Part shown: one piece after another, positions 5,884 to 25,755 of the stretch
Layout: every line of letters begins with the position of its first letter
Position numbering within the stretch: the stretch's first letter is position 1
From: Planctomycetales bacterium
Lineage (GTDB): Bacteria; 4484-113; JAFGCY01
Assembly: GCA_022646745.1 (NCBI GenBank)
Contig: CP060262.1
Span: 3,840,001-3,872,000, forward strand
Direction of reading: 5' to 3'
Length of the DNA: 32,000 bases
Program-made: the position numbers and the translations under genes
Notes under the pieces: generated by a model
Database searches by the model: none
The model's input: the letters and a program-made list of their open reading frames with translations, nothing else
What the model was told of the DNA's origin: nothing

Positions 5884-5914
5884 AGCTGCGGTCGCAACCT
5901 AACCTCATTAGGCT

Positions 5915-6160
5915 CTACCGGCAGGACTTCGGCTTCCAGTACTTCGGCAACCTGATGTCTTTTAACAGGTCGGCTGGCTCGCATTGCAGAGCTCTGGCAA
6001 TCTGGCAAAGGTTGAGCAGTGCGACGTTGCGTTCTCCTCGCTCGATGGATCCGATGTAGGTCCGATGCAGTCCCGACCGGTAACCAAGCTCCTCCTGTGA
6101 AATGCCCATGGCTTCGCGCAAACGCCGAATATTCAGCCCCAAAGCCTGCTTTACTTCCAC
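5915..6160 (-). CDS. XRE-family helix-turn-helix transcriptional regulator
   Basis: 81-aa ORF with a GTG start. LGLNIRRLREAMGISQEELGYRSGLHRTYIGSIERGERNVALLNLCQIARAL is a canonical HTH_3/XRE signature (Q-x-x-LA...IS..E.G.R.P). It is divergent from the 6232 gene. Confidence 0.85.
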   Translation of the reverse strand: MEVKQALGLNIRRLREAMGISQEELGYRSGLHRTYIGSIERGERNVALLNLCQIARALQCEPADLLKDIRLPKYWKPKSCR

Positions 6161-6177
6161 GAAGTAACGCTAATGAC

Positions 6178-6206
6178 TTGCATTTTATAGGTCTACAGAC
6201 TATAAG
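6178..6206 (+). promoter_or_regulatory. Sigma70-like promoter for the Zn-ribbon/OB-fold gene, in the divergent XRE intergenic region
   Basis: TTGCAT (6178-6183), a 17-nt spacer, then TATAAG (6201-6206). It lies about 26 nt upstream of a GGAGG Shine-Dalgarno and ATG 6232. Confidence 0.4.
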
Positions 6207-6231
6207 TAGCAGGACAATGTTGGAGGTGACA

Positions 6232-6942: not shown

Positions 6943-6978
6943 TCCGCATCCAAAGTGCTATGATGCTAGATAACAGTA

Positions 6979-7863
6979 ATGGATCAGAATCTCACTACTT
7001 CAGGAGCCATTGCGCAAGCAATTCGTGGGCATAATCGCTTGGTTCAAGCTGTGTTGTTGTATTTTGAATGGCAAGTTCAATATTTTGGCGGGTTCTGTTT
7101 AGATACCAATGATTTATATTTGTTTCTCAAATCCAATGGAGTGATGAAAGGCAACCAGCGACTAAATGACTTGCTACTGAAGAAGCTCTTAGTACATGAA
7201 GGTAAGTTCATCCTGTCAATCGATAATGGTGATGGACAGCATAACTATTCCAGGATGGAAGATGTACTGCCTCAAGAGCGGATTCCTCTATGCAGTCTGT
7301 TCATTGAATTAGGGTTTAGATATGATGTGTTGACAACTTCTGCAGGTCTTTCATCTCGGCAGTCCAGATATCCACAACTTAAGCCGTGCTGGATTTACAA
7401 GGCCAGTTCCAGTTCGAAGGTGATGTTGACAAATCAGGACGTCCGGGCTCCAGCGAAAAAGAAGGAGTTTCAATATGATGAGAATGGCAAGTTGATTTCA
7501 GATTCTAGCCAGGCTTTGAAATCCGCAAATAAACTCAGAAGTGACAACTCAGCTAAGAACGGGAAGTCCCGAAAGAAAAAGTCGCGATCTAAGGGTTCAA
7601 AGCAAAATGCTGCCAATGGATCCAAAACGAAGCAGAACACCAATACTGATAAGGCAGTAGATCTATACCAAATCCTTGAGCGTATTGTGCGTGCTGAGTT
7701 GGCTGGCAAGGTCCCTCAGTACATACTGGATCGATACGACCAGCGTCTCAAAGACAAGGAAACAGAGAAACAGAGACAGAAAACTAAGCTTGCCAGGAAA
7801 GATGGAGATGCATGGCATTCCGTCATTCTGAATGGAACAGGCGGCAAGTTTAAGAAGAAGTAA
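6979..7863 (+). CDS. Hypothetical protein with a Lys/Ser/Asn-rich, very basic C-terminal half
   Basis: 294-aa ORF from an ATG, AT-rich relative to its neighbours. The basic low-complexity stretch is KSRKKKSRSKGSKQNAANGSKTKQNTN. I recognise no family motif. Confidence 0.55.
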   Translation: MDQNLTTSGAIAQAIRGHNRLVQAVLLYFEWQVQYFGGFCLDTNDLYLFLKSNGVMKGNQRLNDLLLKKLLVHEGKFILSIDNGDGQHNYSRMEDVLPQERIPLCSLFIELGFRYDVLTTSAGLSSRQSRYPQLKPCWIYKASSSSKVMLTNQDVRAPAKKKEFQYDENGKLISDSSQALKSANKLRSDNSAKNGKSRKKKSRSKGSKQNAANGSKTKQNTNTDKAVDLYQILERIVRAELAGKVPQYILDRYDQRLKDKETEKQRQKTKLARKDGDAWHSVILNGTGGKFKKK

Positions 7864-7913
7864 GCTGGGGAGTGCCCCTAGACTTGTGCCTATCTGACAA
7901 ACGCACCTCAACC

Positions 7914-7942
7914 TTCAGGGTATTGTATCGCTGTTCTATAAT
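7914..7942 (+). promoter_or_regulatory. Possible promoter of the DISARM-like operon
   Basis: A perfect -10 TATAAT sits at 7937-7942. A weak -35 TTCAGG sits at 7914-7919 with a 17-nt spacer. Confidence 0.3.
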
Positions 7943-7971
7943 TGAAACGAGGCAAGCCAAAGTCCTAGTAT

Positions 7972-10968
7972 TTGTTTCACAACATTTCACGGAATGCAAG
8001 GTTGCCACAAAGAACGGTAAATCTAGTCACTGACCCAAACGAAGGTTGTCCGGTGGGAAGTAGCGATTACGAAAAGCCTGCGAAGAGCCTAACTCCTGGC
8101 TCCATTGTCCATTGCCGCAACAGGGACTGGGTGTACATGCCCGCGGATGATCCCAGTCTGATTCTGCTTCGACCTCTTTCCGGCGTGTCTGACGATGTTA
8201 TCGGGATACGTAAGGACCTGATGGAGCTTATTGGCTACACGCTACCAACAGAGCGAATCCAGCCGTCTTCGTTCACCATCCCCTCCACTACTGACATCTC
8301 AGATGCCGCAAGCACTCACCTGCTGTACCAGGCTGCTCGTCTCGCGCTGCGTGAAGGTTCCACTCCCTTCAGGTCCCTCGGCCACATTTCCGTCAGGCCA
8401 CGAATCTACCAGTTTGTCCCGCTTCTGATGGCTCTGCGGCTGGATCTGATCCGCCTCTTCATTGCGGATGACGTTGGCATAGGGAAAACTGTAGAAGCAT
8501 TGATGATTGCCAGGGAGATGTTCGACCGTGGTGAGATCCGCAACTTCTGCGTGCTTTGCCCACCATATCTCTGTGAACAGTGGCAAGCCGAGATTACCGA
8601 AAAGATGAACATGGATGCCGTTGTGATCCGTTCCGGCACTACCACCCAGCTGGACCGCGCCAAGCCGGCATCTGAAAGCATCTACGCCCATTATCCTGTC
8701 CAGGTTGCCAGTATCGACTTCATCAAGACTGACCGCAATCGCCATGCATTCCTGCAAGACTGCCCGGATATGGTGATTGTTGACGAAGCACACGGTTCAG
8801 CCAACTCCAACAACAACTCTGACAATAAACACTATCGCCACAAGCTGCTGCGTGATATAAGCAACCTTACAGACAAACAGCGCCATCTGATCTTATTGAG
8901 TGCCACACCACACAGCGGCATTGAATCTGCTTTCAGCTCACTACTTGGATTGCTGAACCCGAAGTTCGAAAGCTGGCAGATGGATTCGCTTAGTGAAGAC
9001 CAGCGCATTGAACTTGCCAGGTACTTCGTCCAGCGGACTCGGCCTGACATTAAGCAGGACTGGGATGGAGAGCATTGCTTTCCTGAACGGGATCCTTCAG
9101 ATGAAACATACGCGCTTTCTGCTGCCTACAGGAAGCTGTTTGATAAGACATACGACTTCTGCTCAGAGATAGTCGAATCCGGTCAAAGCCTTGCAAAGAA
9201 CAAGCGACGCGCACGCTTCTGGGGTGCCCTGGCACTGATGCGTTGTGCGATGTCAAGCCCTGCGGCAGCATTGGCAACACTGGAATCACGGCATGACAAG
9301 CTTGATGACAGTGATGATGAGCTTGAATTCCGCGGCTATGTGTTCGAGTCCAGTGAAATGCTCACGGATGATGAGCAACCCCTTCCTCCCGTGGATTCTG
9401 CCGAGGCCACACTTGGCGATTCAGATCGAAGGAAGCTGCGAGCGCTTGGCAAGTTGGCAAAGGAGCTGCTCGATTCAAAAGATGACACCAAGCTGAACCA
9501 ATGCATCAAACTGACCATAGAGCTGCTGGACGATGGCTTCAACCCGATTATCTGGTGCCGCTTCATTGCAACTGCTGAGTATGTTGGCAATGCCCTGCGT
9601 AAGGAACTTTCCAAAGGAAAGTCAGATGTGCAGGTAGTCACCATCACCAGTCGGATGGGAGATGACGAGCGCCAGGCAAAGATCCAGGAGATCAATGGAG
9701 ATCTGCCACGGGTGCTTGTCTCTACAGACTGCCTTAGCGAAGGTATCAACCTGCAGCATGTATTCGATGCGGTGCTACATTACGACCTGCCCTGGAATCC
9801 AAACCGGCTGGAGCAGCGTGAAGGCCGCGTTGATCGTTTCAACCAGCCCTCCAAAGTAGTGAAGAGCATCCGCTATTACAGCCCTGAAAACCCGGTGGAT
9901 GGCGTTGTACTCGAAGTGCTGCTCAACAAAGCCCGGACAATCCACAAGGCGCTTGGAACTTACGTTCCTGTCCCTGAGGAAAGTCAGTCGGTGTTTGAAG
10001 CTCTCCTGAATTCCCTATTCCTGCGTGGCAGACGAGACCAGAATGACCAACTGCGCTTTGACTTCGAAATCGATGATCTCCAGCGGAAGCAGCAACTGCA
10101 GGAGCGCTGGGACAGGGATGTTGAGCGTGAACGTATCAACCGCACCAGGTTTGCCCAGCGCTCGCTAAAGCCTGCAGAAGTCCGCGCTGAACTGGAATCA
10201 ATTGATGAAGTGCTTGGTGACAGCGACGCTGTCAGGCATTTCGTGCTTGCTGCTGCCCAGCGCCTGGACCTGCAGATCAGCAAGGCCGGCGACAAGGATG
10301 TTTACAACGTTGCTGTTGCCAGCACGGCAATAGCCACCGTGCCGCCAGCGATCAGTTTTGCATTGCCTCCCGTTAAAAGTGGAAAGTGGAAGATAACCTT
10401 TTCCTCTCCTACCCCAGAAGGCGCGGAGGATGCGGAGTACATCGGGCGCAATCACAAGCTCGTTGCAGCCATCTCGCGCTACCTGATTGAGGAAGCGCTT
10501 GCCGAGAATGGCAACCCTGCCGTATCCAGGTGTGGAGTCATCCGCTCAAAGAGAATCGCCAACAGGACTACCATCCTGTTACTGCGAATTAGATACCTTC
10601 TCAAGAAACCGGACGGTCATACTCAGATGTCCGAGGAAGTGCTGGTGATGGGCTATGAGGGAAGCAAGCCTTCCCTGCCAAAGTGGCTGCCTGATTCCGA
10701 AAGCCTGCGCCTGCTTGCAGAAGTCCTGCCCGATGCAAACATTCCACTGAATGAAAAGCAGGCATTGCTCAGTCCCGTGCTTGATAACTGGTCAGAACTT
10801 GAAGGCGCCATCGTGCCGAAAATCGAGGAACGAGCAGCAGCCCTTGAAGCGGCGCATAAGCGAGTTCGCCAGGCGTCTTCACAGATCGTGCGTGGCCTCA
10901 AGGTTGAAGCACAGCTGCCGCCCGACCTCCTGGGAATCGTGGTCATCGATCCGCTGGGGGACAAATGA
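7972..10968 (+). CDS. drmD: SNF2/RapA-like superfamily-2 helicase, DISARM DrmD-like
   Basis: Motif I is IADDVGIGKTVEAL, motif II is VIVDEAHGS and motif III is LLSATPHSG. The helicase-C region is VLVSTDCLSEGINLQHVFDAVLHYDLPWNPNRLEQREGRVDRFNQ. The start is uncertain: TTG 7972 in the track, or GTG 8053 preceded by GAAGG. The stop overlaps the next start (ATGA at 10965-10968). Confidence 0.8.
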   Translation: MFHNISRNARLPQRTVNLVTDPNEGCPVGSSDYEKPAKSLTPGSIVHCRNRDWVYMPADDPSLILLRPLSGVSDDVIGIRKDLMELIGYTLPTERIQPSSFTIPSTTDISDAASTHLLYQAARLALREGSTPFRSLGHISVRPRIYQFVPLLMALRLDLIRLFIADDVGIGKTVEALMIAREMFDRGEIRNFCVLCPPYLCEQWQAEITEKMNMDAVVIRSGTTTQLDRAKPASESIYAHYPVQVASIDFIKTDRNRHAFLQDCPDMVIVDEAHGSANSNNNSDNKHYRHKLLRDISNLTDKQRHLILLSATPHSGIESAFSSLLGLLNPKFESWQMDSLSEDQRIELARYFVQRTRPDIKQDWDGEHCFPERDPSDETYALSAAYRKLFDKTYDFCSEIVESGQSLAKNKRRARFWGALALMRCAMSSPAAALATLESRHDKLDDSDDELEFRGYVFESSEMLTDDEQPLPPVDSAEATLGDSDRRKLRALGKLAKELLDSKDDTKLNQCIKLTIELLDDGFNPIIWCRFIATAEYVGNALRKELSKGKSDVQVVTITSRMGDDERQAKIQEINGDLPRVLVSTDCLSEGINLQHVFDAVLHYDLPWNPNRLEQREGRVDRFNQPSKVVKSIRYYSPENPVDGVVLEVLLNKARTIHKALGTYVPVPEESQSVFEALLNSLFLRGRRDQNDQLRFDFEIDDLQRKQQLQERWDRDVERERINRTRFAQRSLKPAEVRAELESIDEVLGDSDAVRHFVLAAAQRLDLQISKAGDKDVYNVAVASTAIATVPPAISFALPPVKSGKWKITFSSPTPEGAEDAEYIGRNHKLVAAISRYLIEEALAENGNPAVSRCGVIRSKRIANRTTILLLRIRYLLKKPDGHTQMSEEVLVMGYEGSKPSLPKWLPDSESLRLLAEVLPDANIPLNEKQALLSPVLDNWSELEGAIVPKIEERAAALEAAHKRVRQASSQIVRGLKVEAQLPPDLLGIVVIDPLGDK

Positions 10969-13900
10969 GCAACTACCCCGCAATCAGGATCGAAGGTGGA
11001 CTGATCAGCTCAGACCTGCTGGACCAGATCTCCGCCGCTGAACTGCCGGGGCTCAAGCCTGCGGACTTCGGCCTTCCAGCCAAACGCAACCTGACAGATG
11101 AAATAGCTGCAATCTTTGCTGAGGCTCGCGCCCAATACGAAGTCTTCAAGAGCCGCCGCGATCGCCTGCAGGTGGATGATATTGGCACGAGTACTACCCG
11201 CGACTTCTGGATGATTCCGCTGTTGTCAACTCTTGGCTATCAGATGACTTACAATCCCAAGGCATACGAAGCCGGCGGCCTGAGCTTTGCCATCTCGCAC
11301 CGAGCAGGCGACGATGAAGACTCATTGCCACTTCACATCGTCGGCTTCCGGCAGGAGCTCGGCAAGCTGCCCGCCTCAGGCCGTCCACGCATGGCTCCGC
11401 ATACCCTCGTGCAGGAATATCTCAACCGCACCGAGCATGTCTGGAGCATTGTCAGCAACGGCCTAACCCTGCGCGTGCTGCGCGACTGCAGCTTCATCCG
11501 GCGCCAGGCCTATATCGAATTCAACCTTGAGCAGATCTTCGAGGACCAGCGCTTCCCCGAGTTTCGCCTACTCTACATGCTGCTGCACCGCAGCCGTTTC
11601 CCGCAGGGCATTGACGACTCCGAGTCCTGCCTGATTGAGCAGTATTACAAGCACAGCGTTGAGCAGGGTGGCCGTGTCAGGGAGAACCTACGTGATGGCG
11701 TGGAGCAATGCATTGAGATGCTGGCCAATGGCTTCCTCAGCCATTCTGCCAATGATTCTCTGCGCAACAAACTGACTCTACCCAGCTCAGACCCTGACCA
11801 CCTCAGCGCTATCAGCCTCTACCGCCAACTGCTGCGGCTGGTCTATCGTTTCCTCTTCTTGCTTGTGTCCGAGGAACGCGGGTTGATCAGTTCTGATCCC
11901 GCCTACAGGAAGTACTACGGCATCTCCCGGCTGCGTAAGGCGGTTGACAACCGCTCCGCCTACTCCGCATATGACGACATCTGGCAGGGTCTGCGTGTGC
12001 TGTGGCAGGTGCTGTCCGATGAGCGGATGGCAGCTATGTTCAATGCCGCCCCGCTCAATGGTGAGCTGTTTGCCCACCAGACTCTTGACTCCTGCTCGAT
12101 CCATAACAAGGACTTCCTTGAGGCGCTGCACAGGCTTGTCTACTACGAAGAGAAGAAGGGTGCTCCCTTGCGCCGGGTCAACTATGCTGCGCTGGATGTG
12201 GAGGAGCTCGGCTCTGTCTACGAAAGCCTGCTGGAGTTCCATCCGGAAATCTCGAAGAATGGACGCGGGCTGCCCAGCTTTGAGCTTGTCTCCGGCTCAG
12301 AGCGCAAGACCACAGGCTCCTATTACACTCCGCCGCAGCTTGTGAATGAACTGATCCGCTCAGCGCTGGAGCCTGTGATCGAGGAACGGCTGCAGGCAGT
12401 AAAGGATAAGGTTCCCGACAGGACCAGCCTGGACTACAAACAGCGGGCCAGCAAATCACTGCTGGGCCTGCGTGTCTGTGACCCGGCCTGCGGCAGTGGG
12501 CATTTCCTGCTGGCAGCCGCACGGCGCATTGGCAAGGAGCTTGCCAGGGTTGTCTCCGGTGAAGAGGAGCCGGCTCCGGACCAGACAAGGGAATCCGTGC
12601 GTGAGGTGATCTCGCACTGCATCTATGGCGTGGACAAGAACCCGCTGGCTGTGGACCTCTGCCGGGTAGCACTCTGGCTAGAAAGCCACTATGGAGAGAA
12701 GCCCCTCTCCTTCCTGGACCACCATATCCGCTGCGGCGATTCCCTGATTGGCATCTTTGACCTGCATGTGCTCAGCCAGGGCATTCCTGATGCCGCCTAC
12801 AAGGACCTTGAGGGTGATGACAAGGAAGTCGCCAGGAAGTGGAAGAAGGTAAATAAGGAGCAGCGCGAGGGTGGCAACAGCCTGTTTGGAGTTGATCCAG
12901 GGCAGGCTCTGGATCAACTGGCGCAGGCTGGACGGGAGGTTGACCAGCTCGGGGATGACTCCCCGGAAGCAGTGCGCCGCAAGAAGCAGGTTTACATCCA
13001 GAACCACAATGACGAACATTGGCTGCAACTCAAGACAGCCTGCGACATGTGGTGCGCAGCCTTCTTCCAGCCGTACCAGAAGGGACAGCCTGCAATCACA
13101 ACGGAGCATGTCAACGACGTGCTTGGCAACAGGCCGGTGGATGAACGGCTAAACGGGATTGCGCTGGAGTATAGCGAGAAGCTGCCATTCTTCCACTGGC
13201 CGCTGGAGTTCCCGGAGGTGTTTGCGGATGGTGGCTTTGATGTAGTGCTTGGCAATCCACCTTGGGAACGAGTGAAGCTGCAGGAAAAAGAATTCTTTGC
13301 CAGCAGAGATTCTAAAATTGCAAATGCCGCAAATAAAGCTGCACGTGACAGGATGATCAAGGCACTTTTGCAGCAATCTGAGAATAGCCATCAGTGGCAA
13401 CTTTATCAAAGCTTCCGGGAAGCAAAGCGTGAGGCCGAAGCAATTAGCCAGATCCTGCGAAACAGCGATCAGTATCCACTCTGTGGGCGCGGTGATGTCA
13501 ATACATACTCCGTGTTCGCTGAGCGAAATCGCAATCTGATACGCCCGACCGGTCGGGTAGGCTGCATCGTGCCAACCGGCATTGCCACTGACGACACCAC
13601 CAAGTTCTTCTTCCAGGACCTGATGCGTACCAAATCATTGGCAAGCCTGTATGACTTTGAGAACCGAGCCAAACTGTTTCCGGCAGTGGACAGCCGCATG
13701 AAATTCTGCCTGTTGACACTGACGGGATTGCAGGTCGGAGTCTCGAAAGGCGCAGACTTTGTCTTCTTTGCACATGAATCTTCAGACCTCAATGAAGATT
13801 GGCGACACTTCCGCCTGACCGATGCGGATATAGCATTGCTGAATCCGAATACTATGACGTGTCCGGTGTTTCGCGGGGCGCGAGATGCTGAAATCACAAA

Positions 13901-15215
13901 ACAAATATATAGACAGATACCAATTTTAGTGAGTTTAACTACTCATGGTGAATTGGACTGGTCTGTCAATTTGTCAACAATGATCCACTTGACCAATGAT
14001 TCAAACTTGTTAATTCCAAATGATAACGATGTTCATGCAGATTTACCAACAGCAATGGAAAATGATGAAACCCTGTCACCAACTTTCCTGCGCTTGTTTG
14101 AAGGAAAAATGGGACATCAATATGATCACAGATTTGCGGGTTATTATGAGAGTGACTATGTTCTAACGCCTGTTAGGAACAAAATAGATCCTTTGTTTCA
14201 GATTCGTTCTAAGTATTTAATGAACTTAAATGATTTCATCGTTGTTGGATCAAAGTGGCACGAATCTAGTGCATCTTGCTTTCTAGGATTTCGTCGCGTA
14301 TCTAGAAATAATGATGAGAGAACTAGTATCGCCTGTATACTTCCGCAAGAGCCAAATACTTATGGATGGATTGTTTCATTAGGAATTTCAGGAAGTGAAC
14401 AATGCCTTCTATTGGCCAATTACAATTCCTTTATATTAGATTACTGTTTACGTAACACATTAAGCCAACCTAGTATTCCCCAAGGGACTTTCGAGCAACT
14501 CCCTGTGTTGCCACCATCAACTTATAAGCAAGCAACCCCTTGGCAGGCCGAGCTCACACTCTCCGACTGGATCAGGCCGCGTGTGCTGGAGCTGTCATAC
14601 ACCGCCTGGGACTTGGAACCCTTTGGACGGGATCTTGTCAGCGTGGCAGATCAGTCCTTCCGCGACTATGTCAAGGCCGTACCCTTCGACCCGGCAAAAG
14701 TGCCCTACAACCTGGATCACCTGCTGGGGAGGCCTGGTATCAGTCAGGCAAATGGAGCTGCGGCGCAAGTCGGACAACCGTACGCTAACAATGATGATCT
14801 TGTAGTTGATGGACACATCGAAGAAGTTGCAACACCCTTCACCATCCCGCCCTACCGCTGGGACGAGGCTCGGCGCTTTCTGCTCCGTTGCGAACTAGAC
14901 GCGGCCTACTTCCACCTCTACGGCATCCAGCGTGATGACGTAGACTACATCATGGACACGTTCCCGATTGTCAAACGAAAGGATGAGGCGCAGTACAAGT
15001 TGAAGGTGCTGCCGGGAGAACCGGGCTACCCTGCAAACCCCAGCGAATACAAAGCAGCTGAAGACGGCTCAGTCGAGATCGGCGACTATCGCACCAAGCG
15101 TGTAATCCTGGAGATCTACGACGAAATGGCGCGCGCTCAAATGCGCGGCGTGCATTATAAGACGAGACTAGAACCACCTCCGGCCAGCCCGGAGTGCCAG
15201 CATGATTGGGAGTAG
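10965..15215 (+). CDS. drmMI: Large gamma-class N6-adenine DNA methyltransferase (YeeA/Eco57I-like), DISARM DrmMI-like
   Basis: 1416 aa. The SAM-binding motif I is VCDPACGSGHFLLAAARRI and catalytic motif IV is VLGNPPWERVK. GSYYTPPQLVNELI is present. Family-typical C-terminal motifs are EGKMGHQYDHRF and RCELDAAYFHLYGIQRDDVDYIMDTFPIVKRKDE...GDYRTKRVILEIYDEM. GGGGGA precedes ATG 10965. Confidence 0.85.
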   Translation: MSNYPAIRIEGGLISSDLLDQISAAELPGLKPADFGLPAKRNLTDEIAAIFAEARAQYEVFKSRRDRLQVDDIGTSTTRDFWMIPLLSTLGYQMTYNPKAYEAGGLSFAISHRAGDDEDSLPLHIVGFRQELGKLPASGRPRMAPHTLVQEYLNRTEHVWSIVSNGLTLRVLRDCSFIRRQAYIEFNLEQIFEDQRFPEFRLLYMLLHRSRFPQGIDDSESCLIEQYYKHSVEQGGRVRENLRDGVEQCIEMLANGFLSHSANDSLRNKLTLPSSDPDHLSAISLYRQLLRLVYRFLFLLVSEERGLISSDPAYRKYYGISRLRKAVDNRSAYSAYDDIWQGLRVLWQVLSDERMAAMFNAAPLNGELFAHQTLDSCSIHNKDFLEALHRLVYYEEKKGAPLRRVNYAALDVEELGSVYESLLEFHPEISKNGRGLPSFELVSGSERKTTGSYYTPPQLVNELIRSALEPVIEERLQAVKDKVPDRTSLDYKQRASKSLLGLRVCDPACGSGHFLLAAARRIGKELARVVSGEEEPAPDQTRESVREVISHCIYGVDKNPLAVDLCRVALWLESHYGEKPLSFLDHHIRCGDSLIGIFDLHVLSQGIPDAAYKDLEGDDKEVARKWKKVNKEQREGGNSLFGVDPGQALDQLAQAGREVDQLGDDSPEAVRRKKQVYIQNHNDEHWLQLKTACDMWCAAFFQPYQKGQPAITTEHVNDVLGNRPVDERLNGIALEYSEKLPFFHWPLEFPEVFADGGFDVVLGNPPWERVKLQEKEFFASRDSKIANAANKAARDRMIKALLQQSENSHQWQLYQSFREAKREAEAISQILRNSDQYPLCGRGDVNTYSVFAERNRNLIRPTGRVGCIVPTGIATDDTTKFFFQDLMRTKSLASLYDFENRAKLFPAVDSRMKFCLLTLTGLQVGVSKGADFVFFAHESSDLNEDWRHFRLTDADIALLNPNTMTCPVFRGARDAEITKQIYRQIPILVSLTTHGELDWSVNLSTMIHLTNDSNLLIPNDNDVHADLPTAMENDETLSPTFLRLFEGKMGHQYDHRFAGYYESDYVLTPVRNKIDPLFQIRSKYLMNLNDFIVVGSKWHESSASCFLGFRRVSRNNDERTSIACILPQEPNTYGWIVSLGISGSEQCLLLANYNSFILDYCLRNTLSQPSIPQGTFEQLPVLPPSTYKQATPWQAELTLSDWIRPRVLELSYTAWDLEPFGRDLVSVADQSFRDYVKAVPFDPAKVPYNLDHLLGRPGISQANGAAAQVGQPYANNDDLVVDGHIEEVATPFTIPPYRWDEARRFLLRCELDAAYFHLYGIQRDDVDYIMDTFPIVKRKDEAQYKLKVLPGEPGYPANPSEYKAAEDGSVEIGDYRTKRVILEIYDEMARAQMRGVHYKTRLEPPPASPECQHDWE

Positions 15216-15945
15216 GAGGTATGAATTGAAAGACATTATAAAAGAATCTATGGAGCGTTCTAAGAATGAGCTAGGTCCTGCGTTTCAGTTTTTTGTGCTT
15301 CCATTAACGCCAGATGCTAGCGGAGAAGTATTCATACCGAATGCTCAACGAGAACCAGCGTGGAACATGTTGATTTACGAACTTCAGCAGTTTGGTTTTA
15401 CTGCAGAGCACTTTTCCGAAAAACTCAATGCAGTATTCGGATCAAGTAATCAACTAGAAGTTCTTCAAGAAATTGCACGACGAGTAGAAGCAGGAAACCT
15501 TCCAGCATTCTATGACGTATTTAAGAGGTACCCAGAATTTAAACAGAATTACAGCAAACTATCTGACGGCACTTACTTCTTCGCTGTTGGCGATCCTGAA
15601 TATTTCTACTTACGGGGCTTGCTGAATACTGCCACAGATGTTCGTAGAGAAAATGAACAGGAAACAACTAGAAAGCACGAGTTCAGATTGGGTTTACTCA
15701 ATACAATTGTCGCTGCGCTCATCACTGCTACTACAACAATTCTAATCGCGATCCCTAGCTGCATTAACAATGAGTATGAGGGCCTAGAGAAGGCTATTGG
15801 AGATACTAACAGCAAGCTGGTTGATTTGCAGAGAGTTATACAAGATAAGCAAGTCGCAGGTGAAGTGGAGATTTCGAATGACGTGCTTTCTGTTGAGCTT
15901 GAACAGGACAATCCGCAGCAGGTCAATCATTCCGGAGCAAACTAA
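15202..15945 (+). CDS. Hypothetical single-pass membrane protein (about 165-aa N-terminal domain, TM helix, coiled-coil-like tail)
   Basis: 247-aa ORF. The TM segment is LGLLNTIVAALITATTTILIAIP. ATG 15202 overlaps the methylase end by 14 nt. TTG 15226 is an alternative start, 6 nt after a strong AGGAGG (15214-19). The TAA at 15943-45 lies 1 nt before the next ATG. A sampled line has about 40% GC. Confidence 0.6.
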   Translation: MIGSRRYELKDIIKESMERSKNELGPAFQFFVLPLTPDASGEVFIPNAQREPAWNMLIYELQQFGFTAEHFSEKLNAVFGSSNQLEVLQEIARRVEAGNLPAFYDVFKRYPEFKQNYSKLSDGTYFFAVGDPEYFYLRGLLNTATDVRRENEQETTRKHEFRLGLLNTIVAALITATTTILIAIPSCINNEYEGLEKAIGDTNSKLVDLQRVIQDKQVAGEVEISNDVLSVELEQDNPQQVNHSGAN

Positions 15946-15946
15946 G

Positions 15947-17026
15947 ATGCCCCTGACTGAAGACATTCGTGCCGAAGCTGTCCAACGCTACTTCCGTGAG
16001 CGCGATCGATATGCAAAACTCGCCGAAGCAGTAGAGCACCGTGTTCGCCAAGTCGTTGATTTTCGCATGGTGCATGCAGTAATCCAGAGCAGAGTCAAAA
16101 CCGTCGAAAGCTTTAATGGCAAGCTTTTACGTTGGATGAAGAATGGCAGCAAGGACGATGAGATCAACTCGGTGGATGATGTGTTTCGTGTAATGGGCGA
16201 CCTGGCAGCGGTCAGAGTGCTGACCTACCTGGAAGAAGACAGAGAGAAGGTAGTCGAAATGTTCTCCCAGGCTTTCGTCAATAAACAGGGAAATCGGTTG
16301 CGCTCCGCGCCCGGTGATGTAGAAAGGAAACCTGACCCAAACGACACGAGTGGAAAGTCCAGCCAGAATTATCGCGCTACACATTGCAGGGTATTTCTGC
16401 ATGAGGATGAGTGTGAAGGTGTGCATGAGAACCTATCAGGTACGCCATGTGAGATCCAGGTCTGCAGCCTGCTTGCCCATGTCTGGAACGAGATTGAGCA
16501 CGATATCGGATATAAGCCATACGGTGGCGAATTGAGCACGGATGAGAAGAAGTATCTACAGCAACTCGCGGACCTGACAGTTGACGGTGATGTGATTATC
16601 AAGCAGCTGATTGCGGCATCGAATGCCAAGGCTTATGAGCTTGAGGGCGATTTCAAGAACCAGCAGGACTTCTGGTTCAGGCTGAAAGAATTGATCGGTT
16701 TCCCAGCAGACATGTCGCTGGTTGATGAGACGTATTACGAGATGATCGCCTGCGGTCTGAAATCACCATTGGATGTACAGACTAAGTTGCTTACCGGCGA
16801 CTACCATAAGAGGGCTCAGCAACTCATCCGGGACTTCAACCAGTATTGTGAAGAAAAGGAATTGACAATTAGGTTAGAGGTTGATGAATGGCTCACCGTA
16901 CTTTTCGTATCGGAGTGCTGGCAGCAGATCCTGAAGCGTGCAGATAAGAAGGTCCAAAAAGCTCATCCACGACGAATCGTGACAATCGCCGAATCAATGA
17001 AGAGGATGCTAAAGGGCGGAAAATGA
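15947..17026 (+). CDS. RelA/SpoT-homologue (RSH) nucleotide pyrophosphokinase domain protein, small-alarmone-synthetase/toxSAS-like, with a C-terminal extension of about 130 aa
   Basis: All four synthetase-domain motifs occur in order: SRVKTVESFNGKLLR (R.K...S...K), GDLAAVRVLTY (D.aG.R), NYRATHCRVFL (Y.s.H) and CEIQVCSLLAHVWNEIEHDIGYKP (EiQirt...h.Wa..eH...YK). I take ATG 15947 as the start, since the track's 15797 start overlaps the previous gene. The stop overlaps the helicase start (ATGA at 17023-17026). Confidence 0.75.
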   Translation: MPLTEDIRAEAVQRYFRERDRYAKLAEAVEHRVRQVVDFRMVHAVIQSRVKTVESFNGKLLRWMKNGSKDDEINSVDDVFRVMGDLAAVRVLTYLEEDREKVVEMFSQAFVNKQGNRLRSAPGDVERKPDPNDTSGKSSQNYRATHCRVFLHEDECEGVHENLSGTPCEIQVCSLLAHVWNEIEHDIGYKPYGGELSTDEKKYLQQLADLTVDGDVIIKQLIAASNAKAYELEGDFKNQQDFWFRLKELIGFPADMSLVDETYYEMIACGLKSPLDVQTKLLTGDYHKRAQQLIRDFNQYCEEKELTIRLEVDEWLTVLFVSECWQQILKRADKKVQKAHPRRIVTIAESMKRMLKGGK

Positions 17027-20000
17027 CAATCTTCGACCTACATGCATCTGTTCTCTCCGACTACCGGGAGTTTGTCCGCGCCTACTTTTCCGTAGCTGAT
17101 GAGCGTGTCCGCGCTTTCATTGACAAGGCACTGGAAGAGGACAAAACGCTCTGGCCAGACTACCTGCTGCAACTCAGCCCCTCCTACAAGCGTGTTGCCA
17201 CGGTGGACGAACTGGCCCAGCAGGGAAGCCTCCAACAGGAGACTGCACGAGTCTTCCAAACAGACGAGGGTGAGCCTTATTGGCTGTACAAACACCAGGT
17301 TGAAGCAATCGAGAAGGCAGCCCAGGGGCAGAGCTACATCGTCACGAGTGGCACAGGCTCCGGTAAGAGCCTGACCTACTTCATCCCCATCGTGGATTCC
17401 CTGCTGCGCAATCCACACGGGGGCAACTCCGTCGCAGCGCTGGCCATCTTCCCGATGAATGCGCTGGTCAATTCCCAGCGCCAGGCCCTGCAGAAACTGC
17501 AGGATGGCTACCAGAGCAGATACACAAATGAGTTCCCGTTCACGTTCGAGAAATACACAGGCGACACATCCAGCACACGGCGCGAGGAACTGCGCAACCA
17601 TCCGCCTCAGATCATGCTGACCAACTATGTGATGGCGGAGCTGATGCTGGTGCGCCCCGAGGACCAGGTATTCCTCAACCGCAAGGATGGCGGCCTGCGC
17701 ATGCTGGTCTGCGACGAGCTGCATACCTACCGTGGCAGGCAGGGTGCAGATGTGGCAATGCTGATCCGCCGTCTGAAAGAGCGCTGTGCCGCAGAAGGCC
17801 TGCTGCATATCGGCACCAGTGCCACTATGGTCTCGGACAAGGATGTCAGCCCGGTAGCCCGCAGGGAGGCCGTATCCGACTTCGCCTCTCGCTTCTTCGG
17901 CCACAGCTTCAACGAAAACCAGGTGATAGAGGAAACCTTGGTCACATTCACGGAAGGCTCTGCCCCTACCCAATCAGAACTGCAAAACGCAATGCAGGCT
18001 CCCCTGCCCCAGACAGCAGCTGAACTGAAGCAACATCCAATTGTCCGCTGGGCTGAGTATGGATTCGGAGTGGAGCCCGATGCTGAAGGGCAGCTCAGGA
18101 GACGGACACCACGCACGCTCGCTGATGCCGCTGCCGAACTGGCAGCTGCGAGTGTAGTCAGTGAAGCCGAATGTGAAGCAAAGCTGCAGGAACTGCTGGC
18201 GGTCAGCGGAAACCTTGCCAGGGAGGGAGCCGGCAGCGCGATGGCTTTCAAGCTGCACCAGTTCATCGGCCAGGGCCGGGCGATCTACTCCTCATTTGAA
18301 TCCACTGATGAGCGGATATTCAGCATGGATGGCCAGCTCGTCGCCTCAGAAGGGCGCAGGCTGGCACCGATCAAGTTCTGCCGAACCTGTGGACAGAATT
18401 ACTACCACGTCCAGCAGGGCATGCATGAGTTCCTGCCCCAGCCGCTGGGCTGGCTGAGCGAGGAAGAGGAAGGAAACCAGGAAGGCTACCTGATGATCGC
18501 TCCGGCGGAAAACAACTGGAGCGAGGAGCAGATCCCGCAGGAATGGTATGACGCCAGGGGCCGGCTATCCTCGACTTGGAAGGAGCGGGTGCCGCGGCAG
18601 GTCTGGGTTGACATTGAAGGTGGATACAGCACCGCTGACACTGCCAACGGCCTGTGCATGTGGTGGCAACCAGCCCCATTCGCGATCTGCCTGAACTGTG
18701 GGGAGTACTACACGAGGCGGGAGAAAGACTTCACCAAACTGGCATCGCTGTCAAGTGAAGCCCGCTCCAGTGCAACAACCGTCATTGCTGCCTCAGTCCT
18801 GCGCCATACTTCCCATGCAGGCACGGCAGCCAGCAAGCTGCTTTCATTCACGGACAACCGCCAGGATGCAGCTTTGCAGGCTGGTCACTTCAATGATTTC
18901 GTGAAAGTATCGGGTCTGCGGGCAGCCCTCTATGCAGCTCTCAAGGACAAGGGGCATCTCACCTATGAGAATGTTGCCAGGGAAACCCTGGCACACAGTG
19001 GCCTGACAATCCGGGATATTGCTGAGAATGCCCAGTTGAACCCGCAGGCACAGGCTGCCCAGAAGGTCTGGGAAATATTCCAGGAGCTGACCGAGTACAG
19101 GCTGTACAACGACCTGCGCAGAAGCTGGCGAGTTGTCCAGCCGAACCTGGAGGATGTCGGATTGCTCAAGATGGGTTTCCGAGACCTGGATGAAGTGACT
19201 GGCAACGACCATCTCTGGCACTGGCATCCGGCAGCAGCCCATATGTCGGTGGCAGACCGAAAACGCCTGGTTGAAACAATCCTCAGGCAGTTCCGCCAGA
19301 AACTGGCGATCAGCTGCGGTGTACTAACAGAAACCAGGCAGCAACAGATTCGAAAGAAGGCTGAGCAGCAACTAAATGAGTTCTGGGGTCTGGATCACGA
19401 GATAGATGAGTTGAGCACTGCTCGCCAGTACGTGCAGTTAGGTGAAGCAGACAGGTTGCCGTACTCAGCAATCTACCTTACATATAGAAGTGCAATCGGC
19501 CGCTTTATCAGAACATCCCTTAGCCTCAGCACAGATGAATATGATGCAGCTCTCACCGGTCTGCTTGAAATGCTCGTCGGACAAGGATTCCTGCGCAGGC
19601 TTGATCCCGTGGAGGACCATCAGATTTATCAACTGGATGCGTCCTGCCTGCTTTGGCAACTTGGCGATGGCAGCCCACCCCCACCCGATCCGATGTATGT
19701 TCGTCGCGGAACAGCATCAGGCTACTCAGATGTTCAAGTGCCAGTGAATCAATTCTTCAAGAGCTTCTACAGTGAACAGGCTGCTGCAATGGCTGAGTTC
19801 GAAGCTCGCGAGCATACGGCGCAGGTTGTCATGCAGGGTGAACGAGAACGAAGGGAACGTAGGTTCCGCTGGGAGGACAGTGACACCGCAAAGGAAAGCG
19901 AGCTTGGTAGAAGGCTGCCATACATCGTCTGCTCGCCGACCATGGAGCTCGGGATTGACATCGCGGACCTTGACATAGTGCATATGCGTAACGTCCCGCC

Positions 20001-22083
20001 CACACCTGCTAACTACGCCCAGCGCAGCGGTCGAGCGGGACGGCAAGGCCAGCCGGGCCTCGTCTATACATACTGCGGTGCCTTGAACAGTCACGACCAG
20101 TACTTCTTCAATCGCCGGGAAGACATGGTTGCAGGAAGCGTCAAAGCTCCTCGACTGGATCTAGGTAATGAAGCGCTTCTAAAGGCTCATATCCATGCAA
20201 TGTGGTTGGCAAAGGTCCGCCTGCCACTTGGACAGTCAATCGAAAATGTGCTTGACGTCGAAAGCGACGGCCAACCGTTGAACGAGAATGCGGCAGGCCA
20301 GATTCAACTGAAAGACCCAGTCATTAATGAACTAGGAATGAGCATACACAAGATCCTGAATGAGGAACTTGAAGTCGGCGGGTCCATGCCGGGAGTCTCC
20401 CTTGAATGGATCAGGAATGTCCTTGCCACCGCCCCGGAGCAGTTTGACAGGGCCTTCGATCGCTGGCGCGAACTATATGATGCATCCGAAAAGCAGTTTG
20501 ATGCAGCCATGAAGGCCAGAAGGAAGGCAAGGACTAAAGATGACCAGCTTGCCGCATCCATACAGGAAAGGGAAGCTGAGCGCCAGCGAAACCTGTTGCT
20601 GCAGATTGACACACAACGTGAAGAAAGCGACTTCTACCCTTATCGCTATCTGGCAAGTGAGGGTTTCCTGCCTGGATATAACTTCCCTGCCCTGCCAGTG
20701 CGCGCTTGGATTTCACGGGCTGGTGGAGAGTATATTGCCAGACCAAGATTCCTTGGTGTGCGCGAGTTTGCACCTGGCAACATCATCTATCACGAAGGTG
20801 TCAAATGGCAGGCCGATTCCTTCCAGGTTCCTCCCGGCGGCTTGTCAGAGCGGACATCACGAAAGCGGATCTGCCAAAGTTGCGGTGCATTCTGTGAACC
20901 GGAACTGGATCTCTGCCCGGCATGCCATACCAGATTTGATGCCGGAAACAGCACTTTTATTTCTGTTCTTGAAATGCCAAATGTCAAGGCAAGAAAGAGA
21001 GACCGCATTACCTCCAATGAAGAGGAAAGAAGGCGGCGCGGATTCGAACTCGAAACCAGTTTCCAGTTTGCACCAGAGGATGGACGCGTAAGAGTACAAA
21101 AGGCAGACGTTTACATTGGCGACAACCCGGCTATTCAGCTGACTTACGCCCCGGCAGCGACAATCATGAAGATCAACAATGGCTGGCGCTCCGGAAACCA
21201 TACCGGGTTCCTGATAGACATGGAGACTGGGACTGTTGTCAGCGGAGAGGAAGGAGCACCATCGATTGCTTCACAACTAAGTCTCCAGAATGTCAGACTG
21301 ATGGTAAGGGGAACGCATAATCTGCTGCTCCTGAACATCAATCCCAGCTACATGGAAGTGAGCACGGGATTCCTGGCAACTCTTCAATACGCCTTGCAGC
21401 GAGGTTGTGAATCCGTTTATCAACTAGAAGAGTCAGAACTTTCAGCGGAGAGGATTGGCGAACTTGAACATAAGTCCATCATGTTCTACGAGTCCAATGA
21501 AGGTGGCGCTGGAGTCCTGGAACGGATTATCATGCGCCCGGATGCAATTGCTCGCATCGCTGAGGAAGCACTGATCAGATGCCACTTTAAACCGACAGGT
21601 GAAGACATCAAACCGAACTGCGAAGCTGCCTGTTACGAGTGCCTACTCAGCTTTGGGAATCAGCATGAAGCATTGATGATAAATAGGCATGACATCAGAC
21701 AGAATCTGGTGGATCTGACTGGTTCAAGGACACTGACGAGATATGGCGACAGGAACTGGCATGAACACCTTGCCTGGCTAGAGTCACTGACTGACTCCAG
21801 ATCAGAGATTGAACGAAAGTTATTATCTGCACTAGTGGATGGCAACTACCGACTGCCTGACCAGGCACAGAAGTCGATAGATCAGCTCAAGTGCATTCCG
21901 GACTTCTTCTTTGAGCCGAACGTCTGCGTATTCTGCGATGGCACTGTTCATGACGAGCCCAATCAGAAGAAGAAGGATAAGGAGCTTCGTGAGGAGCTGA
22001 AACTTCAAGGGTACAGAGTTGAAGTGATCCGCTATGACCAGCCCTTGGATAAACAGGTCAAGAAAATGATGCGGAATATGTAA
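17023..22083 (+). CDS. drmA-drmB: Fused DrmA-like DEAD/DEAH (DELH) helicase, DrmB-like DUF1998 (MrfA Zn-binding) domain and C-terminal Vsr/DUF559-like nuclease fold
   Basis: 1686 aa. The helicase motifs are motif I VTSGTGSGKSLTY, motif II LVCDELHTYRG and motif III IGTSATM. The helicase C-lobe, CSPTMELGIDIADLDIVHMRNVPPTPANYAQRSGRAGRQGQPG, comes only after a roughly 700-aa insertion. DUF1998-like elements are CQSCGAFCEPELDLCPACH, MFYESNEGGAGVLERI and CEAACYECLLSFGNQHE. The C-terminal 96 aa carry ERKLLSAL...IPDFFFEPNVCVFCDGTVHD...DKELREELKLQGYRVEVIRY. Confidence 0.8.
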   Translation: MTIFDLHASVLSDYREFVRAYFSVADERVRAFIDKALEEDKTLWPDYLLQLSPSYKRVATVDELAQQGSLQQETARVFQTDEGEPYWLYKHQVEAIEKAAQGQSYIVTSGTGSGKSLTYFIPIVDSLLRNPHGGNSVAALAIFPMNALVNSQRQALQKLQDGYQSRYTNEFPFTFEKYTGDTSSTRREELRNHPPQIMLTNYVMAELMLVRPEDQVFLNRKDGGLRMLVCDELHTYRGRQGADVAMLIRRLKERCAAEGLLHIGTSATMVSDKDVSPVARREAVSDFASRFFGHSFNENQVIEETLVTFTEGSAPTQSELQNAMQAPLPQTAAELKQHPIVRWAEYGFGVEPDAEGQLRRRTPRTLADAAAELAAASVVSEAECEAKLQELLAVSGNLAREGAGSAMAFKLHQFIGQGRAIYSSFESTDERIFSMDGQLVASEGRRLAPIKFCRTCGQNYYHVQQGMHEFLPQPLGWLSEEEEGNQEGYLMIAPAENNWSEEQIPQEWYDARGRLSSTWKERVPRQVWVDIEGGYSTADTANGLCMWWQPAPFAICLNCGEYYTRREKDFTKLASLSSEARSSATTVIAASVLRHTSHAGTAASKLLSFTDNRQDAALQAGHFNDFVKVSGLRAALYAALKDKGHLTYENVARETLAHSGLTIRDIAENAQLNPQAQAAQKVWEIFQELTEYRLYNDLRRSWRVVQPNLEDVGLLKMGFRDLDEVTGNDHLWHWHPAAAHMSVADRKRLVETILRQFRQKLAISCGVLTETRQQQIRKKAEQQLNEFWGLDHEIDELSTARQYVQLGEADRLPYSAIYLTYRSAIGRFIRTSLSLSTDEYDAALTGLLEMLVGQGFLRRLDPVEDHQIYQLDASCLLWQLGDGSPPPPDPMYVRRGTASGYSDVQVPVNQFFKSFYSEQAAAMAEFEAREHTAQVVMQGERERRERRFRWEDSDTAKESELGRRLPYIVCSPTMELGIDIADLDIVHMRNVPPTPANYAQRSGRAGRQGQPGLVYTYCGALNSHDQYFFNRREDMVAGSVKAPRLDLGNEALLKAHIHAMWLAKVRLPLGQSIENVLDVESDGQPLNENAAGQIQLKDPVINELGMSIHKILNEELEVGGSMPGVSLEWIRNVLATAPEQFDRAFDRWRELYDASEKQFDAAMKARRKARTKDDQLAASIQEREAERQRNLLLQIDTQREESDFYPYRYLASEGFLPGYNFPALPVRAWISRAGGEYIARPRFLGVREFAPGNIIYHEGVKWQADSFQVPPGGLSERTSRKRICQSCGAFCEPELDLCPACHTRFDAGNSTFISVLEMPNVKARKRDRITSNEEERRRRGFELETSFQFAPEDGRVRVQKADVYIGDNPAIQLTYAPAATIMKINNGWRSGNHTGFLIDMETGTVVSGEEGAPSIASQLSLQNVRLMVRGTHNLLLLNINPSYMEVSTGFLATLQYALQRGCESVYQLEESELSAERIGELEHKSIMFYESNEGGAGVLERIIMRPDAIARIAEEALIRCHFKPTGEDIKPNCEAACYECLLSFGNQHEALMINRHDIRQNLVDLTGSRTLTRYGDRNWHEHLAWLESLTDSRSEIERKLLSALVDGNYRLPDQAQKSIDQLKCIPDFFFEPNVCVFCDGTVHDEPNQKKKDKELREELKLQGYRVEVIRYDQPLDKQVKKMMRNM

Positions 22084-22156: not shown

Positions 22157-22483
22157 TTAACGCTCTACCACCTCCAGCAGGTCATCGCATCGCCGCATCT
22201 TCTGCTTCTGCAGCCAATACAGATAGTGGCGCAGCACTCTTACAGTCCTTTCAATAGTGCGAGGTGCCAATGCCCTGCCCTTGCGGCTATGCAGCAAGGC
22301 ATCGCTCTGCAGGAACAGTTCTATCTGACTTGGCAATATCTCCTTGACGCGACGGTACTCTCCCAGGAATCCAACCGCCTTCATCAGGTCGGTCTGATAT
22401 TGCAGTACGGTGTGCTCCTTGAACCCCTGCTCTCGCAGGTGATCCATGAATGCCAGTGCTGTCGAGATTATTGATGTCTTCAT
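22157..22483 (-). CDS. Orphan tyrosine-recombinase N-terminal SAM-like (core-binding) domain protein; no catalytic domain follows
   Basis: 108 aa. FMDHLREQGFKEHTVLQYQTDLMKAVGFLG....ILPSQIELFLQS....GRALAPRTIERTVRVLRHYLYWL fits the Phage_integrase SAM-like domain pattern. GGAGG lies 5 nt before the ATG. Only 73 nt separate its stop from the convergent helicase stop. Confidence 0.5.
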   Translation of the reverse strand: MKTSIISTALAFMDHLREQGFKEHTVLQYQTDLMKAVGFLGEYRRVKEILPSQIELFLQSDALLHSRKGRALAPRTIERTVRVLRHYLYWLQKQKMRRCDDLLEVVER

Positions 22484-25745: not shown

Positions 25746-25755
25746 AGTTGTCTCC

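Follow-up and report, generated by a model that had tools for sequence, protein, structure and literature searches.

The DNA analysed here, called the window below, is a stretch of 32,000 nucleotides from a Planctomycetales bacterium (assembly GCA_022646745.1, contig CP060262.1, positions 3,840,001 to 3,872,000 of the forward strand), and the element in question is a five-gene operon at positions 7972–22083 of that stretch. This is an anti-phage operon of ARMADA Type I ('disARM-related Antiviral Defense Array') with its core genes in the reversed order, armA-armB-armC. It belongs to a known and already catalogued system and is not a novel DISARM architecture. The sole part of the operon that is not already described is a cassette between armB and armC, consisting of a gene for a near-orphan protein, p239, and a gene for a predicted RelA/SpoT-fold enzyme. 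The explanation as a whole, in which these two inserted genes are cargo and not core parts of the system, is considered probable.

Identity of the operon and its core proteins

Bell et al. (2025; bioRxiv 10.1101/2025.09.15.676423, PMC12458937) sorted the helicases of the YprA family by clade and introduced ARMADA. Its proteins are ArmA, a SNF2 helicase resembling BrxHII and RapA, ArmB, a methylase resembling PglX, and ArmC, a YprA helicase that is a single chain; Type II has ArmD in addition. The closest relatives of ArmC are the Druantia helicases, the ARMADA clade being sister to Druantia. According to the same authors, separate drmA and drmB genes are a hallmark of DISARM, single-chain helicases are ancestral in other clades, and the C-terminus of ArmC is predicted to be an active Vsr-type nuclease located where DISARM has a separate PLD gene. 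The reversed order SNF2-methyltransferase-YprA is a published variant of Type I, mentioned for archaea and cyanobacteria. The initial annotation had read the operon as a non-canonical class 1 DISARM; in the light of the published definition of ARMADA, every anomaly that it listed is a defining or described feature of ARMADA.

Table S1 of Bell et al. (2025) lists both the helicase of the window (H7A35_15510 / UNM08238.1 of CP060262.1) and the 99%-identical MCB1221665.1 under the name "ARMADA Type I helicase". In a neighbour-joining tree the window protein of 1686 amino acids (aa) nests in the Type I clade, among helicases of loci with the canonical Type I gene order, and is separated from DruE and from the Type II ArmC of E. 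coli. It matches the helicases of 80 reference-genome loci with 770–1900 bits, as compared to ~230 bits for E. coli ArmC or DruE (armABCD and druE of E. coli ATCC 8739 served as the references). The identity to Type II ArmC is 23–29% over partial alignments, and DruE is similarly distant. Orthologues of the SNF2 and methyltransferase genes flank the helicase gene in most of those among 160 related loci, drawn from genomes and metagenomes, that have enough flanking sequence. The gene order in these loci is mostly the canonical one of Type I, and one subclade shares the order of the window.

The armC gene (17023–22083, + strand) encodes the YprA-family DEAH helicase-nuclease of ARMADA Type I, with the Pfam domains DEAD, Helicase_C and MZB. 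The Walker A motif GTGSGKS lies at aa 110–116, the DELH box at aa 231–234 and MZB, the current name of DUF1998, at aa 1454–1541. CxxC pairs are present at 453/556 and 1284/1298. Two of the pairs, C453/C456 and C556/C559, are invariant and are located between the RecA halves, as expected of a Type I helicase, whose published traits include a BrxA-like insertion after RecA1, a beta-barrel zinc module and a MarR-like domain within RecA2 (PMC12458937). More than 7,900 homologues of ArmC were found as single chains; among the 120 matches listed, nearly all are 1680–1700 aa long and, apart from the 99%-identical sister copy, they are 57–62% identical to the window protein and come from many phyla. 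Since the homologues are so uniform in length, there is no local fusion or frameshift in armC. An assembly or frameshift artefact is rejected on the same ground and by the independent assembly that carries the 99%-identical copy. The 1686-aa single open reading frame (ORF) described in the initial annotation is real, but the DrmA-DrmB fusion that was seen in it is not: the protein groups with another system, and the suggested compaction or domain loss relative to DrmA plus DrmB is moot for a protein that does not derive from such a fusion.

The C-terminal part of ArmC (aa ~1593–1671, encoded at 21799–22035 on the + strand) appears to be a Vsr/DUF559-like nuclease domain of the PD-(D/E)xK type. 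The match to Pfam DUF559 has an E value of 0.004 and falls below the gathering score; the residues D1627, D1639-G1640, H1643 and D1644 are invariant. An AlphaFold2 model of aa 1556–1686 reached a mean confidence (pLDDT) of 86. A Foldseek search with this model placed I-Bth0305I (3r3p), a Vsr-like homing endonuclease, on top with a probability of 0.98 and a TM-score of 0.62, followed by other PD-(D/E)xK nucleases, and I-Bth0305I also came first in a profile search with the domain. These individually weak lines agree with the published prediction, and the C-terminus of ArmC is therefore predicted, from sequence and model, to be a Vsr-like nuclease that replaces DrmC. A PLD domain is absent from the five operon proteins and from the ORFs scanned between 3073 and 30617, in agreement with what was noted before. 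However, DrmC is not simply missing, as had been supposed, as long as the predicted Vsr-like domain fused to the helicase stands in its place.

The armA gene (7972–10968, + strand) codes for a SNF2/RapA-like helicase that resembles BrxHII. Pfam recognises SNF2-rel_dom and Helicase_C in it; Walker A (GIGKT) occupies aa 174–178 and DEAH aa 276–279, and RapA is the best match among solved structures. Orthologues with 36–60% identity adjoin the helicase in related loci, and the identity to E. coli ArmA is 27% (E 1e-44). In PADLOC the protein is matched by the DpdE model PDLC02853 with 607 bits, by DrmD with 292 bits and by BrxHII with 173 bits. With the NCBIfam model of DrmD (NF038317) ArmA reaches 329.5 bits, where the cut-off is 610, and is a relative of this family that stays under its threshold; with the NCBIfam model of DpdE it reaches 177 bits (cut-off 500). 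PDLC02853 matches ArmA over its full length and scores far higher than the models of DrmD and BrxH. ArmA sequences of ARMADA were probably included in this PADLOC model, and older annotation may label ARMADA loci as Dpd.

The armB gene (10965–15215, + strand) encodes an N6-adenine DNA methyltransferase of the PglX/YeeA/Eco57I type with matches to Pfam Eco57I, N6_Mtase and MmeI_Mtase. Its S-adenosylmethionine-binding motif (DPACGSG) begins at aa 506 and its catalytic motif (NPPW) at aa 764. The best PADLOC model is DrmMI with 283 bits, its best stretch covering only aa 439–769, and type IIG follows with 206 bits; an NCBIfam scan returned no match to a DISARM methylase. E. coli ArmB is matched with 113 + 63 bits, and an orthologue of the window protein is adjacent to the helicase in related loci. 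No relative of the methylase among solved structures was found by sequence search.

Could the operon nonetheless be a class 1 DISARM in which DrmA and DrmB are fused and compacted and the PLD nuclease DrmC is lost? The combination of a SNF2 helicase, an N6-adenine methyltransferase and a DEAH helicase with DUF1998 does resemble DrmD, DrmMI and DrmA/B, and in PADLOC the methylase fits DrmMI best and the SNF2 protein is matched by DrmD models. The likeness to class 1 DISARM noted initially holds in this loose sense, as both have a SNF2 helicase, a PglX/YeeA-type N6-adenine methyltransferase and a YprA-family helicase with DUF1998, and a methylation-linked, restriction-like logic is presumed for both. 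It does not extend to the helicase, which groups with ARMADA. DruE models score up to 300 bits and DrmA 38 bits in PADLOC; the NCBIfam model DISARM_DrmA gives 18.4 bits against a cut-off of 950, and the search of solved structures reached no DrmA or DrmB chain. DrmD stays at 329 bits against 610, and the separate DrmA and DrmB that mark DISARM are replaced by one chain from another YprA clade, which is catalogued as ARMADA Type I and has its nuclease not lost but fused to it as a Vsr-like domain. A variant DISARM is very improbable.

The scores could also be taken as a sign of a Druantia or Dpd variant. ArmC is matched in PADLOC by DruE3 with 300 bits and DruE1 with 281 bits, ArmA, as the only protein of the operon, by the DpdE model mentioned above, and the best solved structure for ArmC is E. 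coli DruE (9tu7), followed by 9wae and then by MrfA/YprA. Nevertheless, no DruA-D, DruM/F/G, DruH or 7-deazaguanine genes of Dpd are present among the window ORFs scanned, and the NCBIfam scores lie far below their cut-offs for DpdE and also for DpdJ (72 bits against 800). The sister relationship of the ARMADA and Druantia clades explains the DruE matches, and PADLOC v2 (2023) is older than ARMADA, so that its nearest models absorb ARMADA proteins. A Druantia or Dpd variant is hardly credible. The DruE of Druantia Type III (PDB 9TU7) is the closest solved helicase, and both proteins are large single-chain members of the ARMADA/Druantia branch of the YprA family; DruE, however, has PLD-like C-terminal domains and works with DruH, whereas the window protein has the Vsr-like domain and is partnered by a SNF2 helicase and a methyltransferase.

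With ARMADA Type I the operon shares the three core genes, the single-chain helicase with MZB and the C-terminal Vsr-type nuclease. It differs by its planctomycete host and by the presence of p239 and the RelA/SpoT gene between armB and armC. ARMADA Type II (armABCD of E. coli NCTC 12900, EDL933 and ATCC 8739) has the same armA-armB-armC order and domain logic, but there ArmD (RelE-GajB/UvrD) is located downstream of ArmC, whereas no UvrD-type gene occurs among the window ORFs scanned. Type II ArmC has 2113 aa with extra EEP and second Vsr domains, which the 1686-aa ArmC of the window does not have. The identity of the window proteins to E. coli ArmA, ArmB and ArmC is 23–30%, and the helicases fall into separate clades.

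The five ORFs are all on the + strand and are tightly packed: 7972–10968 (998 aa), 10965–15215 (1416 aa), 15202–15945 (247 aa), 15797–17026 (409 aa) and 17023–22083 (1686 aa). Start and stop codons overlap as ATGA at 10965 (armA/armB) and at 17023 (RelA/SpoT gene/armC). These overlaps, the gene content and the domain calls (SNF2, Eco57I/N6_Mtase and DEAD-Helicase_C-MZB according to Pfam) were given correctly at the outset, as was the convergent orientation of the next gene, which lies at 22157–22483 and is an integrase N-terminal fragment. Some starts lie inside the longest ORFs. The SNF2 gene probably starts ~35–40 codons downstream of the TTG at 7972. The third gene most likely starts at TTG 15226 behind AGGAGG, which agrees with the 239-aa product at NCBI, and the fourth most likely at ATG 15947 (359 aa), two bases past the upstream stop codon. 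A single sigma-70-like match precedes the operon (TTGAAA-18-TAGTAT, 7942–7971, + strand), a promoter candidate by consensus match only. In scans for promoters and terminators the sites of the region did not exceed shuffled expectation, which is weak negative evidence, and no promoter-like or terminator-like site was found at the borders of the cassette.

Defence has been demonstrated experimentally for ARMADA Type II, where it is direct and non-abortive and requires all genes and catalytic motifs, including the Walker motifs of the helicases and NPPW of the methyltransferase, with ArmD being essential (Bell et al. 2025). For the window operon we infer the biochemical activities, as well as the role of the cargo discussed further below, on this basis. 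By analogy with ARMADA Type II, DISARM, BREX and Druantia, ArmB would methylate a motif of the host DNA and thereby mark it as self. ArmA and ArmC would translocate on invader DNA that is unmarked or contains single-stranded DNA. ArmC would unwind it, and its own nuclease domain would make the cut, so that a separate PLD gene would be unneeded. Such defence would be direct and not abortive.

The main value of this assignment is corrective, because an operon with the appearance of a fused or defective DISARM turns out to be an ordinary ARMADA Type I system. Tools that predate late 2025 (PADLOC v2, NCBIfam) spread ARMADA genes over the labels DISARM, Druantia and Dpd.

The cassette between armB and armC

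The two cassette proteins have the locus tags H7A35_15500 and H7A35_15505, directly before the helicase H7A35_15510. No homologue of either gene was found in the 160 related ARMADA loci, and both genes differ in GC content from the remaining operon.

The first gene, p239 (15226–15945 on the + strand; longest ORF from 15202), codes for a near-orphan protein with one predicted transmembrane helix at ~aa 158–180 of the 239-aa form, as judged by hydropathy. Its GC content (0.42) and its GC content at third codon positions (GC3, 0.38) are unusually low. It could be assigned to none of the families of Pfam, PADLOC, NCBIfam and PHROG. When 1.84 billion representatives were searched exhaustively with HMMER, a single real relative came up (P0242, 30% identity), which is the last gene of a Type I restriction-modification operon beside a large serine recombinase. 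A second relative is the 246-aa gene in the same position of a sister island described in the next section (23% identity, E 3e-15). Two roles for p239 were tried and rejected. It is not a hidden conserved fourth component of the system, as a three-member hidden Markov model matches nothing in the 6,403 ORFs of the fetched loci, and it does not form a conserved two-gene module with the RelA/SpoT gene, as each is found without the other.

The second gene (15947–17026, + strand) encodes a 359-aa RelA/SpoT-fold protein, a predicted nucleotide pyrophosphokinase (Pfam RelA_SpoT, E 1e-9). An AlphaFold2 model (pLDDT 92.4) consists of an N-terminal small-alarmone-synthetase domain and an all-helical C-terminal domain of ~140 aa. 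The family yielded 409 matches in the search and comprises proteins of ~350–370 aa; the catalytic motifs R-x-K, D-x4-R, YRxxH, ExQ and HxxNExxHD are invariant in 40 homologues. Foldseek aligned the model to B. subtilis SAS1 with a TM-score of 0.77, and CapRel was matched as well. The homologues examined stand alone in contexts that resemble defence islands, near PIN, TIR, Mrr and SNF2-NOV genes; all of them lie outside ARMADA operons and without a p239 partner.

One explanation of this gene would be that it is an ordinary small alarmone synthetase of the stress response, with no role in defence. Indeed, in structure and sequence it comes closest to RelQ, RelP, YjbM and YwaC, all of which are housekeeping enzymes. 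On the other hand, the gene is strain-specific, sits inside a defence operon on a mobile island and has homologues in defence-island contexts. Its product has a conserved extra C-terminal domain which is absent from RelQ and RelP, and it matches a PHROG phage family with 63 bits. An ordinary synthetase is thus improbable. The protein resembles CapRel, a fused toxin-antitoxin, and the other fused or two-gene toxSAS enzymes in several respects: the catalytic fold with intact motifs, the size of ~360 aa, the C-terminal helical extension and the occurrence as a single gene in defence islands. It differs from this group in having no sequence match to CapRel, FaRel2 or Tas1 and in a C-terminal domain that does not superpose on that of CapRel.

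A side observation concerns both cassette families. One and the same metagenome sample, JGI 3300075153, yields on different contigs the only p239 relative outside the islands (P0242) and a close RelA/SpoT homologue with 46% identity. In these two contexts (P0123, P0242) the p239 relative lies in a Type I restriction-modification operon, and an Mrr_cat gene is located two genes downstream of the RelA/SpoT homologue.

A cargo slot beside armC and its turnover

The position occupied by the cassette is rarely empty in loci of the same gene order. Among the relatives with reversed order, genes are present between methylase and helicase in about 24 of 25, a count which combines scorable loci with contexts fetched by exact protein look-up. 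Inserts of more than 400 bp separate armB and armC in 10 of the 11 scorable reversed-order loci (median 1.8 kb) as compared to 28 of 206 other junctions (Fisher p ~9e-8); the slot of one relative (L001) is empty. The contents vary from locus to locus. They include ATPases (PDC-S01-type AAA_14/DUF4143 and AriA/GajA/OLD-like AAA_15/21), AbiEii, GmrSD/HEC-05, HEC-01B, PDC-M04A+B, Schlafen/AlbA_2, deaminases and a protein with the metallo-beta-lactamase fold, further XisH together with a ParE-UvrD (ArmD-like) fusion, IS200-type transposases and genes of no known kind. A RelA/SpoT-fold enzyme occupies the slot in this window only. In loci of canonical order, additional genes (UvrD-type, GmrSD, Fic or others) occasionally follow directly on the helicase gene. 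Reversed-order operons take up foreign genes preferentially between armB and armC, most of them of defence or toxin type, and the two genes inserted there in the window are probably cargo and not core parts of the system. A term search of the main text of Bell et al. (2025) found no mention of embedded inserts or of a variable slot; the embedded, recently exchanged cargo and the general slot are an unreported element.

The exchange can be followed in detail by comparison with a sister assembly, GCA_020440665.1 (L169), which has the same island and flanking genes and a helicase that is 99.05% identical. According to blastn, the window and L169 are 92.1% identical over 5774–13360, share nothing over 13361–17022 and are 99.4% identical from 17023 on. 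The exchanged module (13361–17022, + strand, 3.66 kb) comprises the C-terminal ~620 codons of armB, presumed to be the target-recognition part, p239 and the RelA/SpoT-like gene. Its left breakpoint (13360/13361) is located ~30 codons past the NPPW of the methylase, and its right breakpoint (17022/17023) coincides exactly with the start codon of armC. Accordingly, the two methylases are 84–100% identical over aa 1–800 and 19–41% identical thereafter. The sister methylase has 1326 aa; the slot of the sister island contains the single 246-aa gene and no RelA/SpoT gene, and the operon there is intact. As the 246-aa protein is a remote homologue of p239, p239-like proteins go with the C-terminal half of the methylase, and the RelA/SpoT gene is a strain-specific addition.

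A trough of GC content (0.39; GC3 0.335) at 13965–14564 lies within armB, inside the exchanged half. Its position in the presumed target-recognition region hints at a foreign origin of the specificity part of armB.

There are precedents for unrelated genes lodged among the core genes of a defence system based on methylation. The toxin PrrC is lodged in the Type I restriction-modification operon EcoprrI. In BREX, auxiliary and backup nucleases are embedded in the operon (Rakesh & Krishnan 2026). The present case is similar in that unrelated effector or toxin genes are placed within the core operon, and differs from both in that the host system is ARMADA Type I, the insertions concentrate on one junction beside armC, and the cargo turns over together with the C-terminal half of the methylase.

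As to the origin and role of the cargo, p239 and the RelA/SpoT gene were acquired with a new C-terminal half of the methylase, presumed to determine specificity, in one recombination event. The cargo would most likely be co-transcribed with the operon, no promoter-like site being found at its borders. The RelA/SpoT enzyme would most likely be a self-contained second-line module of the abortive-infection type, which would shut down translation or deplete nucleotide pools by pyrophosphorylating tRNA or nucleotides.

Alternatively, the inserted genes could be integral parts of a separate subtype of ARMADA, functionally coupled to it. In that case the ARMADA complex would restrain or activate the RelA/SpoT enzyme, which would be either a backup toxin released when a phage inhibits ARMADA, like PrrC in EcoprrI, or the counterpart in function to the RelE-like toxin domain in ArmD of Type II. 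The tight packing, with the stop codon of the RelA/SpoT gene overlapping the start of armC and no promoter-like site of the cassette's own, is in line with this view. So is the repeated use of the slot on the armC side by toxins and effectors, among them ParE/RelE-UvrD (ArmD-like) proteins in Type I, and so are the essential role of ArmD in Type II and the embedded backup effectors documented for BREX. Moreover, p239-like proteins were seen three times, each time directly behind a restriction-type methylase or specificity gene. However, the RelA/SpoT gene is missing from the 160 related loci and from the sister island, whose operon is intact, and its homologues elsewhere stand alone. The contents of the slot are mutually unrelated, which fits opportunistic cargo better, the slot of L001 is empty, and the GC content of the cassette deviates. 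Integral components are for these reasons rather unlikely, and we prefer the reading of the cassette as cargo.

A further reading would hold that the armB-armC junction of reversed-order Type I operons is a dedicated docking slot for interchangeable second-line effectors (AbiE, GmrSD, OLD-like and PDC-S01 ATPases, deaminases and, in the window, a novel RelA/SpoT toxin resembling CapRel along with its membrane partner). These would be co-transcribed with the operon, swapped along with the specificity half of the methylase, wired to ARMADA as PrrC is to EcoprrI and fire when the primary system is blocked, and the RelA/SpoT family would be a new single-gene defence family of the toxSAS type. We regard this as a doubtful proposition.

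Several points weigh against the explanation preferred here. Experimental support exists for ARMADA Type II only, and defence by the Type I operon of the window is a prediction by analogy. Methylation of a host motif by ArmB is putative. The sequence scores of the nuclease domain are below threshold (DUF559, E 0.004; 3r3p, E 0.18 and 0.07), though three methods agree. The statistics of the slot come from ~25 phylogenetically related loci, and the events are not fully independent. As for the RelA/SpoT-like protein, neither its single sequence nor a 40-sequence profile reached the PDB chains of CapRel, FaRel2 and Tas1, the full-length superposition of its model on CapRel is poor (root-mean-square deviation ~23 A), and the idea that it is toxic or autoinhibited is no more than an analogy. 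Finally, the ATGA overlap with armC and the lack of a promoter-like site of its own mean that the cargo could be functionally integrated with ARMADA.

The slot and its cargo offer a useful, moderately interesting lead. ARMADA Type I operons have a place for cargo beside armC that is highly occupied and turns over fast, and the pair of sister strains displays an exchange at base-pair resolution that is coupled to a change of the C-terminal half of the methylase. If the cargo were functionally linked to ARMADA, the operon would provide a compact natural model of layered immunity and a route to new effectors, among them the ~360-aa RelA/SpoT family, which is uncharacterised, and the orphan family of p239.

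Further irregularities were observed among the related loci. A small gene for a four-helix-bundle protein resembling bAvd / 23S_rRNA_IVP lies between the SNF2 and methylase genes in two close relatives (L171, 115–495; L172, 954–1340), which makes the SNF2-methylase junction another, less frequent site of insertion in the operon. Helicases of the UvrD type that are extended at the N-terminus by ~210–230 aa, ParE/RelE-like in L013, are located beside the ARMADA helicase in L013 (7597–9669), L108 (13435–15417), L030 (12301–14124) and L028 (6928–8973). Since such genes adjoin the helicase in several Type I loci, an ArmD-like component, which is held to be typical of Type II, is optional in Type I also. 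In L090 (8001–15335) armC seems to contain an insertion, as the helicase match spans 7.3 kb and not 5 kb. A deletion seems to have fused or inactivated the methylase and helicase genes of L128 (5960–8001), where the methylase (aa 6–675) abuts the helicase from aa 176 on.

Island setting

The surroundings suggest that the ARMADA operon is located on a mobile island beside serine recombinases and the gene of transfer-messenger RNA (tmRNA). The latter gene, ssrA, lies beside the island at 27873–28225 on the - strand and encodes the tag peptide GNTNFELAAA. Between the operon and ssrA are a large serine recombinase (23714–25303), a second ORF with a resolvase domain (25242–25853) and small ORFs of no assigned function. 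A direct repeat of the 3' end of tmRNA that would mark the edge of the island was looked for, and nothing longer than 12 nucleotides was found. Just upstream of the operon are genes on the + strand for a protein with an oligonucleotide-binding (OB) fold (tRNA_anti-like, 6019–6942) and for a 294-aa protein to which no function is assigned (6979–7863). The upstream and downstream neighbours are common to the window and the sister island. The upstream genes and the downstream small ORFs were considered as possible parts of the system and rejected, as homologues are lacking from the 160 related loci and PADLOC gave no match to them.

Outside the window, H7A35_15240 of the same contig CP060262.1 is a second entry under "ARMADA Type I helicase" in Table S1, 54 locus-tag steps before H7A35_15510. 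Since this protein is listed too, two ARMADA Type I systems are present in one neighbourhood of the chromosome.

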